Source: an uncultured delta proteobacterium (lineage in GTDB: Bacteria; Desulfobacterota; Desulfobaccia; Desulfobaccales; 0-14-0-80-60-11). From it: a stretch of DNA of 64,000 nucleotides. The notes beneath the pieces are model-generated. The model searched no databases, was not told where the DNA came from, and worked only from the letters and a program-made list of their open reading frames with translations. The translations under genes were made by a program, and so were the position numbers. Numbering within the stretch: position 1 is the first letter of the stretch; the number at the start of each line of letters is the position of its first letter. Shown here piece by piece: positions 14,125 through 48,995 of this stretch. Location of the stretch: NCBI GenBank assembly GCA_963812015.1, contig CAWETI010000002.1, positions 1,408,001-1,472,000 on the forward strand, read 5' to 3'.

Positions 14125-15573
14125 CTAGAGGCGCACCCGCTCCGGTATCTCGTGGTCCGGACGCGTTGCGTTTTCTTCCGAGTCGGCATCACCCCGGTAC
14201 TCCCGGGCCCGCCGCACCAGCGCCTTAGCCCACTGAGGGCAGCCCAGGGCGTGGAGATGGGTGTAAGTGGCCAGGACGTTTTGATAAAGGAGACCTTCCC
14301 GTTGCCCGCCGATGCCGGAGCCCCGGCTGACCGTAAAGGCCATGGGGACCTCGGGCCCCGGGTCGGGCATCATCTGGGAATAATGAAATTCGTGGCCCTT
14401 GAGCACGGTTCCCCGGGGAAAGTACGGGTTGTCCCGGGTCACTTCCAGGATGGTGTAGCCATGTCCCTGGGGCTTCTTGCCCATGACGAAGTCATAGGGA
14501 AAGAGGCCGGCCATGGGGAATTTTTCTCCCTGGATTTGAATAGTCTCGCCCAGGAACATGAGGCCGCCGCACTCGGCATAGATGGGCAAACCGGCCTGGG
14601 CCGCGGCCTTTACCGAGTTGCGAAAGCTCAAATTCTCGGCCAGGGCCCGGGCATGGGTCTCGGGGAAGCCGCCGCCGATATAGAGGGCGCCCAGATTGGC
14701 CGGGAGGATAGGGTCCTCCAGAGCGCTCAGCTCCACCAGGACCGCACCCTCACGCTCCAGGGCTTCCAGGTTTTCCGGGTAATAAAACTGGAAGGCCGAG
14801 TCCCGGATAACGCCGATGGTCACTGGGGCGGCCGAGGTAGCCGGAAGTTCGATTAGGCCGGGTGACGCCGGCAGGGGCGGGGCCTGGATAGCCACCTGCC
14901 AGAGGCCATCCAGGTCAAGGTAGCGCCGGGCCAGGTCCCGGGCGGTGTTCACGGCCCGGATGGCGGTATGGTGCTCCAGGGGGGGCACCAATCCCATGTG
15001 GCGTTCGGGAAAGACCTCACACTTGAGCCGGGGGATGGCCCCCAGCACCGGGATGCCGCAGTAGGTTTCGATGGCGCTGCGGATGATGGCTTCGTGACGA
15101 GGACGGGCGATCTGGTTGAGGATCACGCCCCGGATGGGCACCTGGGGGTCGAAGTGCTGGCAGCCCAGCACCAGGGCGGCGGTGGTGCGGGTCCGCATGG
15201 TGCAGTCCACCACCAACACTACCGGGGTGGCCAAAAACTTGGCCAGTTCGGCGGTGCTATAAGTACCCTGGGCATCGAGGCCGTCGTAAAGGCCCCGGTT
15301 GCCTTCGATGAGGATGGCGTCAGCCTGATCGGCATGGCGGACCACTGAAGCCAGAATCTGGTCCCCCTCCATGAGGAAGGGGTCCAGATTATGGCTGGGG
15401 CATCCGGCTGCCAGGCAGTGCCAGGCCGGGTCGATATAGTCGGGGCCCTTCTTGAAGGGCACCAACCGACGCCCCTGGTCCCGCCAAGCGGCCAGGAGCC
15501 CCAACGTCAAGGTGGTCTTGCCGGCCCCACCCCTGAGAGCTGCCAGCAGCAGCCGGGGACAGGGCTTATTCAT
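14125..15573 (-). CDS. dsrN: Cobyrinate a,c-diamide synthase homologue (siroheme amidase DsrN)
   Basis: GGAGKTT, KKGPDYID, IEGNRGLYDG, YAECGG, GHEFHYS; translationally coupled to dsrD. Confidence 0.9.
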   Translation of the reverse strand: MNKPCPRLLLAALRGGAGKTTLTLGLLAAWRDQGRRLVPFKKGPDYIDPAWHCLAAGCPSHNLDPFLMEGDQILASVVRHADQADAILIEGNRGLYDGLDAQGTYSTAELAKFLATPVVLVVDCTMRTRTTAALVLGCQHFDPQVPIRGVILNQIARPRHEAIIRSAIETYCGIPVLGAIPRLKCEVFPERHMGLVPPLEHHTAIRAVNTARDLARRYLDLDGLWQVAIQAPPLPASPGLIELPATSAAPVTIGVIRDSAFQFYYPENLEALEREGAVLVELSALEDPILPANLGALYIGGGFPETHARALAENLSFRNSVKAAAQAGLPIYAECGGLMFLGETIQIQGEKFPMAGLFPYDFVMGKKPQGHGYTILEVTRDNPYFPRGTVLKGHEFHYSQMMPDPGPEVPMAFTVSRGSGIGGQREGLLYQNVLATYTHLHALGCPQWAKALVRRAREYRGDADSEENATRPDHEIPERVRL

Positions 15574-15815
15574 CAGTGCTTTGCGGCCCCTTCTTCGTGG
15601 GGAATTTCGATGAAGCTCCCACCGAAGTAGGTATAGACGCAGCGGCCGCCGTCGATGAGAGTCTTGATCCCGAACTTGATCATAGTCTTGTCCTGATCAG
15701 GATGCGCCTTGAGGACGGCCTTCTGGATGTCCATGGCCTTGAGCTGTTTTTTGCCCTGGGCCTTTGCCACCATATCGAAGATAAATTCTACCAACTCTTC
15801 TTTGGAAAGTGCCAT
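15573..15815 (-). CDS. dsrD: Dissimilatory sulfite reductase-associated protein DsrD
   Basis: 80-aa Lys-rich protein directly after dsrB; YTYFGGSF motif. Confidence 0.85.
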   Translation of the reverse strand: MALSKEELVEFIFDMVAKAQGKKQLKAMDIQKAVLKAHPDQDKTMIKFGIKTLIDGGRCVYTYFGGSFIEIPHEEGAAKH

Positions 15816-15828
15816 TTATCCCACCTGC

Positions 15829-16899
15829 TTAGAATTTAAAATGCATCGACGTCCGGTAGGTGTCATAAGCCCAACGGTATTCGTCAATGTGCTGGAAGGT
15901 AAAGGGAATTTCGCATACTTCAAAGAACTTTTCCCACCCGATGCGATTGACCCATTCGCCCACGCGCTCCCACTTGTTAGCGCCTTCGGCGTACTTGATG
16001 AGGATCTTACGGATGGCCTGGACCACTTCCGGCCAGCGGGGCGGATTGTTGGGCAGATAGGGCACCGCCAGCTTGGAGAACATGGGCGGGGTCTTGGAAT
16101 TGGACACTTTGCCGCCGACCAAGAGGGCTACGCCGCCTTTCACGGAGTCGAACACCGGCAGGGCCGGGCACATGGTGTAGCAGTTGCCGCAGTACATGCA
16201 GCGCTCATCGTTGATCACCACGCTCTTGATGCTCTTGTCCGGATGGGGCCGGATGGCGCCGGTGGGGCAAGCCGCGATCGTGGTGGGAATTTCGCACAGG
16301 TGGCGCAGCCTCTCGTGGTTAACTTTGGGGGGCGTGCGGTGGATCCCCAGGATGGCGATGTCGGAGCAGTGCACCGCGCCGCACATATTGAGGCAGCAGG
16401 CCAGGGCGATGCGCACCTGGGCCGGCAGCTTGTGGCTGCCGAAGTACTCAAACAGGTCGTCCATGACGGCCTTGACGATCCCGGAGGCGTCGATGGCCGG
16501 GGTATGGCAATGCACCCAGCCCTGGGTGTGAACGATGCTGGTCACCGAGTGGCCGGTACCGCCCACGGGGATGCCCATCTTTTTGCAGGCGTCCTTCAGG
16601 CCGGCGATCTTGCCCTGGTCGGTGAGCAGGAACTCGATGTTGTTCCGGGAAGTGAAGCGCAGGTAGCCGTCGCAGAACTTGTCGGCCAGGCCGCACACAT
16701 CTTTGATGAAGTCGGTGGTCACCAGGCGGCCGGAGCCACCCCGGACGGAATAGATTTTGGCGCCGGACTCGGACACGTGCATCAGCACACCGGGTTCCAG
16801 GATTTCATGGTATTTCCACTTGCCGTAGTTGTCTTTGATGATGGGCGGCAAGAACTTGTCAAATTTGGGGGGGCCAATATCAGTTATACGGTCAGCCAT
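15829..16899 (-). CDS. dsrB: Dissimilatory sulfite reductase beta subunit
   Basis: [44 protein letters not shown]. Confidence 0.98.
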
Positions 16900-16967
16900 T
16901 TTCCTCATTCCTCCTTATGATTCGGCACTAAGCCAGGCAAGTATGCTTTAATGAGAAAGTTGCCTCA

Positions 16968-18206
16968 TTATTTGATGTATTTACGGCCCGCGGCCTCGGC
17001 CTCGAAGTCTTCGGCGTGCCAGAAAAAGAAGGGGTTGGCCCGGGGGGTCCTGACGGTCTGGGGCACCGGGGGCAGTCCCACGCCCTGGAAGAAACTCCGC
17101 ATCCCCAGGCGCAGCATCAATTCACCCACGCGCTCCCGGTTTTTGCCGTTTTCCGACCACCATTCGTGGATATTGCCGATTAGCTCCGTGAACTCTTCAT
17201 AGGGCGCTTCCATCTGCATGAAGGGGACGATAACCCAGCTCATCTGGGCGCCTTCCAGGATGGGGGCGTGCGATCCCAGGAGCAGGGTGGCGCCGGTTGC
17301 GGTACCGGGCCGCAGGGCCTGGGGCATCATGTTGATGCAGTGCATGCAATGGTTGCAGTTCTTGTTGTCGATGGTCAGCTTATTGCCGTCATAGCTCATG
17401 CAAATAGTGGGGCAGAGATCGGTGACATCGGCCTTGATGTCGAGCTTTTTATAAACGGTGCCGCCACCCGCAGGCTTGATTTCGCCGGCGGCATAGGCCT
17501 TCACCGCGGCCTGGTCGATGCGGATGTCGTCTTTCCAGACGCCGATGACGCTCATGTCGGCCCGGGCAATCGCGGCCACGCAGTCATTGGGGCAGCCGGA
17601 GCATTTGACTTTGAATTTATAGGGGAAAGACGGGCGATGCATTTCGAACTGGAAGTGCTGGGTGGTTTCATAGCACAAGTCCATGGTGTCATAGCAGGCC
17701 CATTCGCAGCGAGCCTTGCCCACGCAGCAGGACGGGGTCCGCATAGCCGAACCGGAGCCGCCCAGGTCCCAACCTTTGGCCGTCAGTTCGGCAAAGGTGG
17801 GTTCCAATTCATCGGTGGTGGTGCCCAGGAAGATCATGTCGCCGGTGGAGCCATGCACGTTCAGGATGCTGCTGCCATGCCGGTCCCAAATGTCGCACAG
17901 GTCCCGCAACGCCTCGGTGGTATAAAACCAGCCGGAGGGCTGGTTGACGCGTACCGTATGGAAATGCTCGACGCCGGGGAATTCTTCAGGCAGGTCGATG
18001 TAACGGCCGATGATGCCGGAGCCGTAACCCAGGACGCCGACGATGCCGCCATGCTTCCAGTGGGTAATCTTGTCTTTGTACGAGCGCTCCAACACCCCCA
18101 GCAAATCCGCAGCTGATTTTTTCCGACCGGCGACCCGCTTCAAATCCTTCACGAAGCTGGGCCACGGACCGGACTCCAGTTGATCCAACAATGGAGTTTT
18201 ATGCAT
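16968..18206 (-). CDS. dsrA: Dissimilatory sulfite reductase alpha subunit
   Basis: TPLLDQLESGPWPSFV, THWKHGGIVGV, RTPSCCVGKARCE, FPYKFK.KCSGCPNDC. Confidence 0.98.
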   Translation of the reverse strand: MHKTPLLDQLESGPWPSFVKDLKRVAGRKKSAADLLGVLERSYKDKITHWKHGGIVGVLGYGSGIIGRYIDLPEEFPGVEHFHTVRVNQPSGWFYTTEALRDLCDIWDRHGSSILNVHGSTGDMIFLGTTTDELEPTFAELTAKGWDLGGSGSAMRTPSCCVGKARCEWACYDTMDLCYETTQHFQFEMHRPSFPYKFKVKCSGCPNDCVAAIARADMSVIGVWKDDIRIDQAAVKAYAAGEIKPAGGGTVYKKLDIKADVTDLCPTICMSYDGNKLTIDNKNCNHCMHCINMMPQALRPGTATGATLLLGSHAPILEGAQMSWVIVPFMQMEAPYEEFTELIGNIHEWWSENGKNRERVGELMLRLGMRSFFQGVGLPPVPQTVRTPRANPFFFWHAEDFEAEAAGRKYIK

Positions 18207-18318
18207 GAACACTTTCCTCCCTTAATTAAATGGTCCCCTATGGGCTTATCCTTTTTTTCACAAAATCATTCCTATCTCATAATATCGCAGGCGATTTGTC
18301 AACTAAAAAATTGGTACC

Positions 18319-39036: not shown

Positions 39037-39708
39037 TCAAACCGGCCGGGTCACCGCCCGACTGAGGTTTTGCAGGATGTCCAGGTAGACCTCCGAGTAG
39101 TTCAACCTTCCCTGGCGGATGGCGTAGAAGGCATTCAGCATCAGGGACGCCACCATGAGATTGGCGAAGAGCAGTTGGGGGGCCCCGGCCGCCATAAGTT
39201 CCTCGCATGACAGGGTGGCGGGGTTCTGGTCCTGGGGGTCGGCAATCTCCGGATGATAGCGGCTCAGGGACGGGGTGAGGTCCTGGCCCCCCTGGCGCAC
39301 GTAAACCTGGACGTTGCCGTCCTCATAGTCGTTGCCCCCGGAAATGAGGGTGAGGTCGGCAAGGGAGGCGGCATGGCGGCTGACCAGGTTACGGGAGGCG
39401 TGGTTGTCCACCATCAGGAAGACCACCTCCCCCTCGCCGATCAACCGGGCCACGTTGTCCTCCGTGACATATTCCGGGGCCGCCCGGAAGGCGATGACTT
39501 CGAACTCCTGCGCCAGTTCCAGCGCCTTGACCTCGGCCTTGTTGCCCAGGCGGGAGAACGCCTGGCGGGCCGCGTTGCTGCGCTCAAAGCGGTCGCCGTC
39601 AATGAGGGTGAGACGGGCCCTGACGGCGGAATATTGCAGATAGCGGCAGAGAAAGGGGAGCAGGGCGCAGCCGATGCCGCCGATGCCGATTGCCTTGATC
39701 TCTAACAT
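39037..39708 (-). CDS. ThiF/E1-like adenylyltransferase
   Basis: GIGGIG, IDGDRFERSNAARQ, NKAE, VDNHASR, SCEE...QLLFAN; no CxxC zinc pairs. Confidence 0.92.
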   Translation of the reverse strand: MLEIKAIGIGGIGCALLPFLCRYLQYSAVRARLTLIDGDRFERSNAARQAFSRLGNKAEVKALELAQEFEVIAFRAAPEYVTEDNVARLIGEGEVVFLMVDNHASRNLVSRHAASLADLTLISGGNDYEDGNVQVYVRQGGQDLTPSLSRYHPEIADPQDQNPATLSCEELMAAGAPQLLFANLMVASLMLNAFYAIRQGRLNYSEVYLDILQNLSRAVTRPV

Positions 39709-39792
39709 ACAGAAGCTCCTTGAGGTATGCCCGGAACCGGGGAACGACTGCTGATCGCCGGCTGAAAGGTATTGAGAAAAGTCCGGTTCGGG

Positions 39793-40455
39793 TCAAGGGC
39801 CGAACTCGATGGGCCGGGGCAGGGGAGTCACTTTCCGACCCACTTCCCCGGCCCAGTCCGCCTCAGGCGGCGTCTCCTCCCAGGGGATGGGATAGGGTGA
39901 GAACAGGTGCTCCGGGGGAATTTGCCCCCGAAACCCTTGGACCACCACGGAGCAGGACAGGGTGAGTTCGCGGTCCAGGTTGCCGATGGTAAGGTGAAAG
40001 CCGTCTTCGAAGCGTTCGTCCTGCCAATCCCTGAGGGAGTGAAACGCGTCCAACCCGGCATGGCTGTGGATGGTGCCCAGGCGGGTGAGTCCCGCCGGGA
40101 ACTCCCTGACCTCGTAATCGCAATGGCCACCCCCCACGGTCTGGTGGGGCACGACCAGTTCGTAGGTCCGGGTGGCTTCCCGCCAGGCCAACAGAACCAC
40201 GGCTTCGCTTTCGTAGCGGGTATAAACGGCCCGGAAGAAGGCCACGGCCCGGAGCAGCAGGGCGGCGGGCAGGGGAGGGGCGCTCAGGCGGATATCGGGC
40301 CCCTGGGACTCGAGCCAGGGAATGCCCGGGGCCGGGACCACAGCCTCAAAGAAGGGAGTCCGTTTCACCAGGAACAACCCATCCCGGGTGAGGAGATAAT
40401 AGATGGTGTCGGCGGGCGGGGAATAATCCCGGTCTTTCAGATAAATGGGTAACAT
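39793..40455 (-). CDS. JAB/MPN (JAMM) metallopeptidase
   Basis: SEAVVLLAW (catalytic E) and GTIHSHAGLDAFHSLRD (HxH-x7-S-x2-D). Confidence 0.88.
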   Translation of the reverse strand: MLPIYLKDRDYSPPADTIYYLLTRDGLFLVKRTPFFEAVVPAPGIPWLESQGPDIRLSAPPLPAALLLRAVAFFRAVYTRYESEAVVLLAWREATRTYELVVPHQTVGGGHCDYEVREFPAGLTRLGTIHSHAGLDAFHSLRDWQDERFEDGFHLTIGNLDRELTLSCSVVVQGFRGQIPPEHLFSPYPIPWEETPPEADWAGEVGRKVTPLPRPIEFGP

Positions 40456-44629: not shown

Positions 44630-46420
44630 ATGGATGGGAAGATAACACGGCTGATCAAACGCCGCATCGCCCCGGACCGTTATGGCTGGTCCGGCCATTT
44701 CCGTTGGCCGCTCATGAGCATTGCGGTGGGCGTGGTCTCCGGCTTGGGGGCCATTCTCTTTGAAGTACTCTTGAAAAATGCACTCTACTATTTATTGCAT
44801 CTGCCCACCGGCTTCATAGAACCGGTAAAAGGGATGAATGCGGCAGCCGTGGCCGCCCTGGCCGGGACCCAATCCTGGCTGGTTCTTGTTATTCCCGCCC
44901 TGGGGGGGCTGATATCGGGGCTTCTGGTTTTTTTAATCGCCCCGGAAGCGGAAGGGCACGGGACCGATGCCATGATCGAAGCCTTTCACCGCCGAGGCGG
45001 CTATATTCGTAAACGGGTACCGCTGGTGAAGATTGTGGCTTCCGCTCTTACCATCGGCAGCGGCGGTTCCGCCGGCAAAGAAGGCCCCATCGCCCAGATC
45101 GGGGCGGGTTTTGGCTCTTTCTTTGCCACGATTTTAAAACTCAAACCCCGGGACCGGCGCATCCTGGTGCTGGCGGGTGCGGCCGGCGGCATCGGGGCCA
45201 TCTTCCATGCGCCCCTGGGGGCGGCGCTCTTCGCCCCGGAAGTACTCTACCGGGAAACGGAGTTTGAATCCGAGGCCATTTTACCCTGTATTGTCTCCTC
45301 CATCGTAGCTTCCTCCATCTTTGACCAGTATTTCGGGCGAACTGCCCTCTTTTTCCCGGGGCCGGTGGATTTCGCACCGGTGGAGCTTTTGCCCTACGCC
45401 ATCTTTGGGCTGGTATGCGCCCTGGTGGGCTACCTTTACGTGAAGCTGTTCTATGACGTGATCCGGGACCGGTTTTTTAGGCGAGTGCCGATTCCCATTT
45501 CTTTGAAACCCGCCTTGGGAGGACTGATGCTGGGCGTTATCGCCTTCTATTTGCCGCAGGTGATGGATGGCGGTTACGGCTGGGTGCAGACGGCCCTGGA
45601 GGGCAAGATCTTCTGGGGCACCATGTTGCTGCTGGCCCTGGCAAAAATTGTGGCCACGTCCTGCACTATCAGTTCCGGAGGGAGCGGCGGCGTCTTTGGC
45701 CCGTCGGTCTTCATGGGGGCCATGCTGGGTGGCGCCTTTGGCTTTCTGGGGCATCAACTGGCGCCGGGTTGGGTGATCCACCCCAACGCCTTTGTCCTGG
45801 TGGGCATCGGCGGCTTCTTCGCCGGGGTGGCCAAGGTGCCGGTGGCCTCCATCATTATGTCTTGCGAGATGTGCGCCAGCTATACCCTGCTGGTGCCCCT
45901 GATGTTAGTGTCCACCATCTCTTATCTGTTGTTGGGCAAGGTCAGCCTCTATGAAAAACAGGTGGTGGACCGGCTAGCCTCTCCGGCCCATATGACCGAG
46001 TTTGCCCGGGAGATATTGGAACAGATGCAGGTGGCCGAGGTGGTCAAACCTCGTAAGGTGACCACAATCCCCGAAAATATGCCCCTGGATCAGCTCATTC
46101 AGGTGGTCACCCACTCCAGTGAAACCTATTTCCCGGTAGTGGATCAAACCGGCCGGATGACCGGGATCTTCTCCATTAACGATATCCGGGAAGTGATGTT
46201 CGAGGCGAGTCTGGGCCATCTGGTGGTGGCTGAAGATGTGGCCACCCTCAACGTGGTGCGGGTCTTCGGAGACGATTCTTTGCAGGAAGCCCTGGATAAG
46301 ATGGTCCGGTTGAACGTCGATGAATTGCCGGTGGTGGAGGCAGAGGCCCCGGAAAAAATTGTCTCCATGATCTCCAAACGGGAGATCATCGGTTACTACC
46401 ATTCCCAGGGGAAGTCCTAA
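44630..46420 (+). CDS. ClC chloride channel / H+/Cl- antiporter with CBS domains
   Basis: GHGTD, GKEGP, GVFGP, SLYEKQ; C-terminal CBS pair. Confidence 0.95.
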   Translation: MDGKITRLIKRRIAPDRYGWSGHFRWPLMSIAVGVVSGLGAILFEVLLKNALYYLLHLPTGFIEPVKGMNAAAVAALAGTQSWLVLVIPALGGLISGLLVFLIAPEAEGHGTDAMIEAFHRRGGYIRKRVPLVKIVASALTIGSGGSAGKEGPIAQIGAGFGSFFATILKLKPRDRRILVLAGAAGGIGAIFHAPLGAALFAPEVLYRETEFESEAILPCIVSSIVASSIFDQYFGRTALFFPGPVDFAPVELLPYAIFGLVCALVGYLYVKLFYDVIRDRFFRRVPIPISLKPALGGLMLGVIAFYLPQVMDGGYGWVQTALEGKIFWGTMLLLALAKIVATSCTISSGGSGGVFGPSVFMGAMLGGAFGFLGHQLAPGWVIHPNAFVLVGIGGFFAGVAKVPVASIIMSCEMCASYTLLVPLMLVSTISYLLLGKVSLYEKQVVDRLASPAHMTEFAREILEQMQVAEVVKPRKVTTIPENMPLDQLIQVVTHSSETYFPVVDQTGRMTGIFSINDIREVMFEASLGHLVVAEDVATLNVVRVFGDDSLQEALDKMVRLNVDELPVVEAEAPEKIVSMISKREIIGYYHSQGKS

Positions 46421-46449
46421 AGCAAAGCCGCGATCAAAGCGCAGAAGAA

Positions 46450-46492
46450 GAAATGGGGAAATGAGCCGCATCGGGCCATTTCCCCATTTTTT
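46450..46492. terminator. Bidirectional terminator-like hairpin between convergent genes
   Basis: AAATGGGGAAATG...CATTTCCCCATTT. Confidence 0.7.
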
Positions 46493-47664
46493 TAGCCGGT
46501 GCGCTCCTTCTTGTAGAGGGGCGACATCTCCCGCAGGGTCTGGACGATGCCCGGCAACACCTTGATCACTTTGTCAATATCAGCCTCGGTATTATCCATG
46601 CCCAGGGTGAAGACCAGGGTGCCCTGAGCCAGGGCGTGGCCCAGGCCGGTGCCGATGAGCACGTGAGAGGCGCGCAGCGATCCGGAGGCGCAGGCGGACC
46701 GGGTGGCCACGATGATGCCTTCCTCGTCCAGCATGAGCACCAGGCTTTCGCCCTCGACATATTCCACCGAGACGGAGAGGAGATGCGGCAGGCATTGGGT
46801 GGGATTGCCGTTGATTCTGATTTCAGGGATGCGCTCGGCCAGCCCCTTGGTCAGGCGGTTCTGGAGGGCCTGGATGCGAGGCAGACGTTCGGGCATCTCC
46901 AGGCGGGCCCTCTCCGCGGCCACGCCCAGGCCCACGATGCCGATTAGGTTCTCCGTGCCGGCCCGGCGTTTGTTCTCCTGGAGGCCGCCGTCGATGAGGG
47001 GCCAGATGGGCGTGCCCTTGCGGACGTAGAGCGCCCCGACTCCTGGGGGGCCGTAGAACTGGTTGGCCGCCAGGCTCAACAGGTTTACCCCCAACTCCTG
47101 CACGTCCACGGGGATAATGCCGGTGGCGGCCACCGCGTCGGTATGCATCACCACCTTGTGCTTCTTGGCGATGGCGGCGATTTCGGCGATGGGTTCGATG
47201 GTGCCGATCTCATTGTTGGCCAGCATAATGCTGATGAGGATGGTTTCGGGCGTTATGGCCTTCTCCACCGCGGCCGGGTCCACCATGCCGTATTTATCCA
47301 CATCCAGGGAAGTGACCCGATAATCCAGGAGGCGGAGGGTCCGGAGAGAATTCAAGACCGACTTGTGCTCGATATTGGAGGTGATGATGTGGCGACCCTT
47401 CTCCCGGAGCCCGATGGCGATCCCCTTGATGGCATGGTTGACGGACTCGGTGCCGCCGGAGTTGAATACCACCTCTTTGGGGTCGGCGTTGATCAGGGCG
47501 GCCACCTGCTCCCTGGCCTGTTCCAGGGCCTGGCCGGCCGGCAGCCCTATCTGGTGTTCGCTGGAAGGGTTGCCGAAGACGGTATTAATATAATTGATCA
47601 TCGCCTCCTTCACCATGGGGTGAAGAGGCGTGGCAGCTAAATGGTCCAGATAGATTACACCCAT
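46492..47664 (-). CDS. iscS: IscS/NifS-family protein lacking the PLP-binding lysine
   Basis: YLDH, GNPSS, IEHKSV, ANNEIGT, RAGTEN, SACASG; SLAANQFYGP replaces SxHKxYGP. Confidence 0.9.
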   Translation of the reverse strand: MGVIYLDHLAATPLHPMVKEAMINYINTVFGNPSSEHQIGLPAGQALEQAREQVAALINADPKEVVFNSGGTESVNHAIKGIAIGLREKGRHIITSNIEHKSVLNSLRTLRLLDYRVTSLDVDKYGMVDPAAVEKAITPETILISIMLANNEIGTIEPIAEIAAIAKKHKVVMHTDAVAATGIIPVDVQELGVNLLSLAANQFYGPPGVGALYVRKGTPIWPLIDGGLQENKRRAGTENLIGIVGLGVAAERARLEMPERLPRIQALQNRLTKGLAERIPEIRINGNPTQCLPHLLSVSVEYVEGESLVLMLDEEGIIVATRSACASGSLRASHVLIGTGLGHALAQGTLVFTLGMDNTEADIDKVIKVLPGIVQTLREMSPLYKKERTG

Positions 47665-47694
47665 GAGAATATCCTCATTTCCCGGCCTGGGACA

Positions 47695-48216
47695 TCAGTG
47701 GTCATGCTCATGGGGTATATCCTTCCCACAAAAAATGCACATAGGAGAATCTTCCTCCACCTGCTTCGAACAATAGGGACAGTAGCAGCCTTCGCGTTCA
47801 TGCTTGTGGTGGGGCTCCTTGTCCAGGTCGGTTTCAGGAACTTTCCCGGCTTTGCGGTCCAGGTAGTTCTTGATGGCCGAATGCAGGGCATCGGCTCCCA
47901 GGTTGGAACAGTGGAGCTTGTTGGGGGGCAGACCGCCCAAAGCCGCGGCCACGTCCGCATTGGTAATCTTCATGGCCTCCGGCAGGGTTTTGCCCCTAGC
48001 CATTTCGGTGATCATGCTGGAAACCGCGATGGCGGCGCCGCAGCCGAAGGTCTTGAACTTGACGTCGACGATGCGGTCATTCTCAACCTTGATGTACACA
48101 TTCATCATATCCCCGCACACGGGGTTGCCAACTTCGCCCACCCCATCGGCGTGGATAATTTCGCCCACATTGCGAGGATTCTTAAAGTGATCCAGTACTA
48201 TTGGGGAATATGCCAT
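47695..48216 (-). CDS. iscU: Fe-S scaffold IscU/NifU-N with C-terminal CxxC-CxxC extension
   Basis: DHFKNPRNVG, GNPVCGD, FKTFGCGAAIA, LPPNKLHCS. Confidence 0.95.
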   Translation of the reverse strand: MAYSPIVLDHFKNPRNVGEIIHADGVGEVGNPVCGDMMNVYIKVENDRIVDVKFKTFGCGAAIAVSSMITEMARGKTLPEAMKITNADVAAALGGLPPNKLHCSNLGADALHSAIKNYLDRKAGKVPETDLDKEPHHKHEREGCYCPYCSKQVEEDSPMCIFCGKDIPHEHDH

Positions 48217-48482
48217 GTTCTTCTCCCATTCAGGTGAGTTCAACAAAATTTTTCTCGTATATTATAGTAAGATTTATCAGGTTGAGGGTCAAGTGGAACC
48301 GCTCCCGGCCCCGGGAATTCTTTGGATAAAGGCGCTTTTTCCTTCAGGGCGGCGCCTGAACTCAAAAGGTGAAAAAGGCGCGCAATTTTGCTGAATAACC
48401 GGGGCAATCCAGGTACAATCGTCATTAAAGAGGCGCCCGGCGCCCCTCTTGCATCCTCTCATCAACCTCACCGAGGCCTGCT

Positions 48483-48995
48483 ATGCTGATACCCTGCTCC
48501 CGGGCCCAGGCCATCTTTGCCGCCCAAGGCGTCAGGCTGGACCGCCACACCCCGGGCTTCATGGTCTGGGACGAACACGGCGGCACCTATGTCCTCCGGG
48601 TGGAGGAACTGGCGGCCACGGAAGTCGTCTCGGACGAATCGGCAACCGGCATCCTCTTGGAAATCCCTCTGTCTTCCCGGGAGACCCTGAGACGCGACCT
48701 GGAAGAGTTCGCCGCGCAGCAACAGCTCCCCCTGGCCCCGCCGTCGGGTCCGGAACTGGCGGAAGCGGTCATCCTGACTGCCTGCCATCTACCAGGGCAG
48801 AATCTGTTCATTTTTGCCGAAGAGCCGGAGGTGGTGGCAAGAAGACGCGGGGAAACCCTGGAAATCGCGGTATCCGGTACGTTTAAGGCCCGGCGAGTTC
48901 CCTGCCAGGCAACCGACCTGGTCATTCACCTCACCAAGGCCGCCATGGCCAGGTTAGTCGCCTTGGTCCTCAGCCTGGCCCGGGCCGGGGATTGA
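48483..48995 (+). CDS. Hypothetical protein
   Basis: 170-aa ORF with host-like codon pattern and GAGG RBS. Confidence 0.7.
   Translation: MLIPCSRAQAIFAAQGVRLDRHTPGFMVWDEHGGTYVLRVEELAATEVVSDESATGILLEIPLSSRETLRRDLEEFAAQQQLPLAPPSGPELAEAVILTACHLPGQNLFIFAEEPEVVARRRGETLEIAVSGTFKARRVPCQATDLVIHLTKAAMARLVALVLSLARAGD

Follow-up and report, generated by a model that had tools for sequence, protein, structure and literature searches.

The window, a 64,000-nucleotide stretch of DNA from an uncultured Desulfobaccales bacterium, encodes an iscU-iscS pair whose IscS has lost the Schiff-base lysine of cysteine desulfurases. By analogy, this protein likely falls outside the active desulfurases and works like the IscS-IscU of Archaeoglobus fulgidus. 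New here is a distinct Desulfobacterota clade that combines a novel arginine, Arg322, with a zinc-ribbon IscU, is enriched in dsrA-bearing genomes and sometimes stands at the head of dsr operons. An inactive IscS as such is no novelty: it is known from A. fulgidus and noted for Methanosarcina acetivorans IscS1 (PMC7585200).

The iscS gene (46492-47664, minus strand) codes for an IscS/MisS-fold protein of 390 amino acids. Its ORF reads LLSLAANQFYGPPG, HTDAVAA where desulfurases have HxDAxQ, and SACASG with the mobile-loop cysteine intact, just as the first-pass annotation had described. That annotation placed a glutamine at the PLP-lysine site. Both the ORF translation, with codon CAG for Gln202 at 47059-47061 (47061-47059 as read on the minus strand), and a gap-free alignment with the S-x-H-K motif of solved desulfurases bear this out.

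Neighboring positions are also replaced. In the alignment to solved desulfurases, Asn201 takes the place of the histidine preceding the PLP-lysine site. Ala179 stands for the PLP-contact glutamine (Q183 in E. coli) and Val351 for the substrate-carboxylate arginine of GSVRF (R354 in E. coli). Retained are the stacking His H100, the pyridine Asp D176, N150, T237 and the mobile-loop Cys325, and Arg322 is a new residue before the Cys motif (TRSAC). We take the kept Thr237 and the lost Ser and His to be PLP-phosphate contacts.

The catalytic lysine is required for cysteine desulfurase activity. Among the hallmarks of the group I enzymes (IscS/NifS/MisS), the window IscS has the fold, the stacking His, the pyridine Asp and the loop Cys but lacks the Schiff-base Lys (K206 in E. 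coli), R354 and Q183. In E. coli IscS, K206A and Q183E abolish the desulfurase activity (PMC9978102). PMC8918507 describes what Lys, Arg, His and Cys do in these enzymes.

An aminotransferase class V fold is found by both profile and model. The AlphaFold2 model (pLDDT 95.7) matches IscS/NFS1 structures, including E. coli IscS and A. fulgidus 4HVK/4EB5, with Z of 54–58 and rmsd of 1.1–1.6. The NCBIfam equivalog scores fall below their cut-offs (TIGR03402, 475 vs 530.75 bits; TIGR02006, 373 vs 643), but this test is weak because the canonical paralogue of the genome likewise falls short. The best PDB sequence matches (9WEP, 9WER, 9WEW, 9WF8, 9WFB, 9WFE and 9WFY) all belong to a single 406-aa desulfurase that is altered step by step; one of the changes, Arg to Val, is also present in the window IscS. 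Five of these ids were looked for in the literature searched, and no paper there named them.

The A. fulgidus IscS is inactive as a desulfurase and ligates the IscU cluster. Its structures (IscS2-IscU; PDB 4EB5, 4EB7, 4HVK; D199K 4R5F) share the fold of the window IscS with Z of 54 and rmsd of 1.1–1.3 at 44% identity. It reads SSNDIYGPKG, HIDATAS and GTLLLT, having His changed to Asn, Lys to Asp, Gln to Ala and Arg to Leu with the loop Cys kept, which is the loss set of the window IscS. Hence, this kind of inactive IscS is already known. Alignment with the E. coli and A. fulgidus proteins, proposed in the first-pass annotation, upheld the Lys loss and added the losses of His, Gln and Arg shared with A. 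fulgidus.

The A. fulgidus genes also form a two-gene pair in a sulfate reducer (PMC8918507). Alike are the residue losses, the loop Cys and an adjoining IscU with intact ligands, but the window IscS lacks the SSND motif, having Gln instead of Asp. It further differs by Arg322, by iscU preceding iscS and by the zinc-ribbon tail on IscU. In A. fulgidus IscS, even the D199K variant has PMP bound, and the proposed sulfur source is sulfide (PMC8918507).

Other known systems are partly similar. PMC7585200 describes the M. acetivorans IscS1-IscU1 as lacking the catalytic Lys, suggests that it acts like A. fulgidus IscS, and reports its coexistence with active desulfurases and an enlarged IscU1 of 24.2 kDa. 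This IscS1 is archaeal and uncharacterised there, so its likeness to the window IscS is by description, not by residues. MIS (MisS-MisU), called the least studied Fe-S system, is a scaffold and a desulfurase homologue in two genes with no accessory genes adjoining, as in the window, but MisS is defined as a cysteine desulfurase while the window IscS is without the catalytic residues (PMC13066941). In the same paper, SMS (SmsCB), also encoded in the genome of the window, is an example of clusters being built from sulfide with no desulfurase involved. Its proteins are SufB/SufC-like and unrelated to the window IscS-IscU.

The partner gene iscU (47695-48216, minus strand), above the NCBIfam NifU_clost cut-off, encodes an IscU/MisU scaffold of 173 amino acids and precedes iscS with 30 nt between the two. 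Its ligand residues C34, D36, C59, H102 and C103 are intact, and the IscU ligands are all invariant. Alignment, Pfam and model mark a C-terminal His-rich linker and zinc ribbon (CYCPYC-x10-CxxC) at 47698-47829 (minus strand). This tail and the Val351 replacement were absent from the first-pass annotation.

The five Cys of the tail are invariant in all 26 aligned IscU tails, which have His-rich ends. Each of these 26 members has Pfam Zn_Ribbon_1 as its best match, with the window copy below the curated cut-off. The tail is modelled with a pLDDT of about 70. Its profile gave weak zinc-ribbon matches only in the PDB (best E 0.023), and an Atlas search returned no usable match. We infer a metal-binding role of the tail.

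No accessory isc or nif genes adjoin the pair, whose neighbors are a chloride-channel-like gene and an ORF of no known family. A putative sigma-70-like promoter, TTGACC-17-TACTAT (48264-48292, minus strand; 9/12 consensus matches), lies upstream of iscU, and its CTTGA is invariant in 17/17 aligned upstream regions. Divergent from iscU is a 170-aa ORF (48483-48995, plus strand) without any Pfam, NCBIfam or Atlas match; its homologues occur in 29 of 64 loci, all of close relatives. Elsewhere in the window (39037-40455, minus strand), a JAB-like gene with a weak PRTRC protein A match lies beside a ThiF/E1-like gene, possibly a ubiquitin-like or sulfur-carrier activation module.

Matches to a clade member at E 1e-126 or below defined the clade and gave 53 carriers among the 401 genomes of the phylum searched. 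The loci of 40 carriers were read; the other 13, of the window's class, were assigned by score, with three of those also read. In all 40 distant loci read, IscS has the Cys but neither Lys nor Arg, and an IscU with the C-terminal CxxC-CxxC ribbon adjoins iscS in 39. At position 322, they have Arg (37) or Lys (3), where canonical enzymes have Gly or Ser/Thr.

The first-pass annotation took Gln, rather than Asp, as the mark of a variant. However, the site varies within the clade (Q, P, T, S, N and I). The Asp form is also found in P0339, a protein with the source name Desulfosporosinus. In the SSND family, 119 of the 120 proteins listed have D and none has Arg, while the window protein reads AANQ. 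Arg322 and the zinc-ribbon IscU are better marks of the variant than Gln.

With the diagnostic columns removed, the tree gave an SH-aLRT of 99 for the clade and 97 for the SSND-type clade, with SSND-type proteins such as P0149 standing in for the A. fulgidus sequence itself. Free trees separate the Lys-less groups, but the AU test does not reject their union (p-AU 0.66 for the clade and SSND; 0.43 for all Lys-less groups). Descent separate from that of the A. fulgidus type is thus no more than a possibility, the same tests being compatible with one clade. Thus, Gln versus Asp carries little weight, because the site varies and the AU tests allow one origin.

Of the 150 top-ranking 50%-cluster representatives, 5 with a truncation or frameshift were set aside, and 19 of the other 145 are Lys-less; 17 of the 19 are also without Arg and Gln, and all 19 keep Cys. 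Arg is kept in 124 of the 126 Lys-bearing representatives. P0124, an IscS that clusters among Lys-less proteins, still has the Lys but neither Arg nor Gln, possibly an intermediate state.

A second Lys-less IscS clade has the SGPALG motif, 44–49% identity to the window IscS and the operon tusA-iscS-rrf2-iscU (loci L066-L071, L073, L075-L079, L081 and L083-L085). This type makes up 15 of 21 IscS copies from 20 chosen loci of the class. Since the two clades coexist, many class genomes hold two different Lys-less systems. Other Lys-less groups are L132-L138 (AANPF/ASQF with GSAC, iscS before iscU, ribbon in 3/7) and the SAHQ-type L178 and L179, paired with IscU. Asgard IscS proteins (L050, L054-L060) have Leu at the Lys site and the substrate Arg kept, with iscU after each.

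The window also encodes dsrA (16971-18212, minus strand) and dsrB (15829-16908, minus strand), as annotated at first; both pass NCBIfam cut-offs and lie about 28 kb from iscU-iscS. An 80-aa ORF (15573-15815, minus strand) between dsrB and a dsrN-like gene is DsrD-like by position. We call it dsrD from its position, since the Pfam DsrD model PF08679 gave no match to it and none in any control either. In the same genome, aprA is above its cut-off outside the window.

Across the phylum, 204 of 401 genomes have dsrA: 48 of the 53 carriers versus 156 of the 348 non-carriers, all counted in MAGs with gaps and among related genomes that are not independent. As kin are not independent, traits were permuted within families. 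In the seven families varying in both traits, with families fixed for either trait excluded, dsrA and the clade occurred together 21 times where 15.5 were expected (p about 0.0005), a partial phylogenetic correction.

The association is not strict. Five carriers are without dsrA and dsrB, four of them also without aprA, which rules out a strict dependence of the clade on dsrAB. Conversely, 156 of the 204 dsrA genomes are without this clade, including six near-complete ones of the window's class (G006, G070, G079-G082).

In four genomes (G414, G302, G390 and G454), the iscU-iscS pair immediately precedes dsrA in the same orientation, with gaps of 14–236 nt. They represent two families, three of the four belonging to one, and all retain Lys-bearing desulfurase homologues. 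In G414 and G390, dsrA is followed by dsrB, a dsrN-like amidase gene, a DsrK-like gene and a YedF/DsrE-like gene. In the other 36 of the 40 loci read, dsrA is not adjacent (within about 1.5 kb). Hence, the link to dsr is stronger than the window had shown: the clade tracks dsrA, also within families, and sometimes heads the dsr genes.

On balance, we lean toward a mechanism built by analogy with A. fulgidus. The iscU-iscS pair would be a minimal (MIS-type) module with IscS as a non-catalytic partner that, without the desulfurase Lys, Gln and Arg, would not process cysteine. It would fold round a B6 cofactor (PLP or PMP) retained non-covalently, dock IscU and lend Cys325 as a ligand to the growing [2Fe-2S] cluster. 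The sulfur source would likely be inorganic sulfide that the cell itself produces in its dissimilatory metabolism. IscU binding, non-covalent PLP/PMP, cluster ligation and the sulfide source are inferred from this analogy.

PMC8918507 points to limits of the analogy itself. The A. fulgidus structure with bound cluster contains the D35A variant of IscU, and with wild-type IscU the Cys may therefore not act as a ligand. The sulfide step of that model is itself presented as a hypothesis. An extension that we regard as rather doubtful is that the Lys-less IscS with Arg322 would receive its sulfur directly from the DsrAB/DsrC pathway to build the DsrAB and DsrK clusters with the zinc-ribbon, possibly iron-loaded, IscU. 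It would then be the sole assembly route, with no cysteine desulfurase, in some sulfate reducers.

The first-pass annotation had suggested a Lys-less scaffold partner in a sulfide-making bacterium and had asked for a canonical desulfurase elsewhere in the genome. The only other intact desulfurase homologue (C3:1092236-1093348) has the canonical Lys, Gln, Arg and Cys and no scaffold adjoining. Because this orphan enzyme and SmsCB are present, other sulfur routes exist and free sulfide is a candidate source, not a necessity. What stands of the suggestion is a probably non-catalytic, A. fulgidus-like IscS paired with IscU in a bacterium that has dsrAB.

The window iscU is the only intact NifU_N gene of the genome. 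At C2:868658-869132 (L086, L187) lies a fused remnant in which the 5' part of a three-domain nifU joins the 3' part of a canonical nifS, through either a real deletion or misassembly. Immediately ahead of it are 25 codons of a second iscU in reverse orientation, and relatives have intact counterparts (L074, L081). In several class genomes, a molybdopterin oxidoreductase and a canonical cysteine desulfurase are fused in a protein of about 1,135 aa (L082:2847-6242, P0154).

It is conceivable, if on the improbable side, that Cys325 instead relays persulfide, taking sulfane sulfur from the orphan desulfurase, TusA/DsrE-type carriers or DsrC and handing it to IscU, whose ribbon could supply electrons if iron-binding. 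In favor of a relay are the invariant Cys loop, the tusA gene in the second Lys-less operon of the class and the YedF/DsrE-like sulfurtransferase gene in the dsr operons that follow iscU-iscS. Among five class genomes chosen for having only two matches, G026, G071 and G072 have one orphan canonical copy each, as does the window's genome (G000). However, the other two, G029 (95% complete) and G049 (96%), showed Lys-less copies only, and a search of a further genome, G363 (99%), likewise turned up no Lys-bearing desulfurase. Moreover, tusA matches beside the window-type loci number 0/64 and 0/47 in two locus sets.

Quite unlikely is a role outside assembly, in which IscS serves to stabilise or store clusters on IscU, or senses sulfide or redox, while SmsCB or NifUS assemble them. 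It draws on SmsB in 43 of the 62 class genomes searched, on canonical nifU-nifS in some relatives of the class and on the near-complete genomes that miss the clade. The invariant IscU ligands speak against it, as does G363, which has dsrA. Its desulfurase-type matches are only the Lys-less copy and a SerC, SufB was not found in this genome, and it has a second, divergent IscU-like gene.

We give very little credence to a remodelled enzyme, whose pocket would bind PLP/PMP and, with Arg322, act on a different sulfur substrate without the Schiff-base lysine or via another lysine. Across the clade H100 and D176 are invariant and T237 is mostly kept, and Cys325, His100, Asp176 and Arg322 are kept in 120/120 best homologues listed, position 322 being Arg or Lys in all 40 distant members as well. 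Nevertheless, the alignment offers no conserved substitute lysine near the site: in distant members K101 gives way to N or Q, and K232 to N, G and others.

The Lys loss is also no accident of one genome. Among the 120 best homologues listed (80–90% identity), position 202 is Q in 116, P in 4 and Lys in none, so the case of relatives all carrying Lys, raised in the first-pass annotation, does not apply and a sequencing error or private mutation is ruled out. None of the 120 has Arg351. The codon is CAG in 11 and CCG in one of 12 relatives compared, and relatives' source names point to Desulfobaccales. The iscS dN/dS is 0.12–0.19 in all 12 comparisons with relatives; the gene is under purifying selection.

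Thus, with nothing to favor it beyond the residue losses themselves, and with an iscS orthologue intact by score in 73 of 83 class genomes, an error or a decaying pseudogene is practically dismissed. A contig of run X1 spans 46400-48060 with zero differing letters, a match that is not independent since X1 may be the source sample. The contigs of three RNA runs cover 22–27 of 30 bins as short, divergent pieces of relatives, so they are no evidence for transcription of the window gene.

In the literature searched, mostly without subscription journals, we found no account of a bacterial Lys-less IscS clade or of iscU-iscS beside dsrAB. The sulfur source of the inactive A. fulgidus IscS-IscU is stated as an open question in PMC8918507. 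The dsrA enrichment, the position at the head of dsr operons and the genomes with no canonical desulfurase found give genomic support for the sulfide hypothesis, and the clade supplies bacterial proteins for testing it. More broadly, many anaerobe genes annotated as cysteine desulfurase probably are not.
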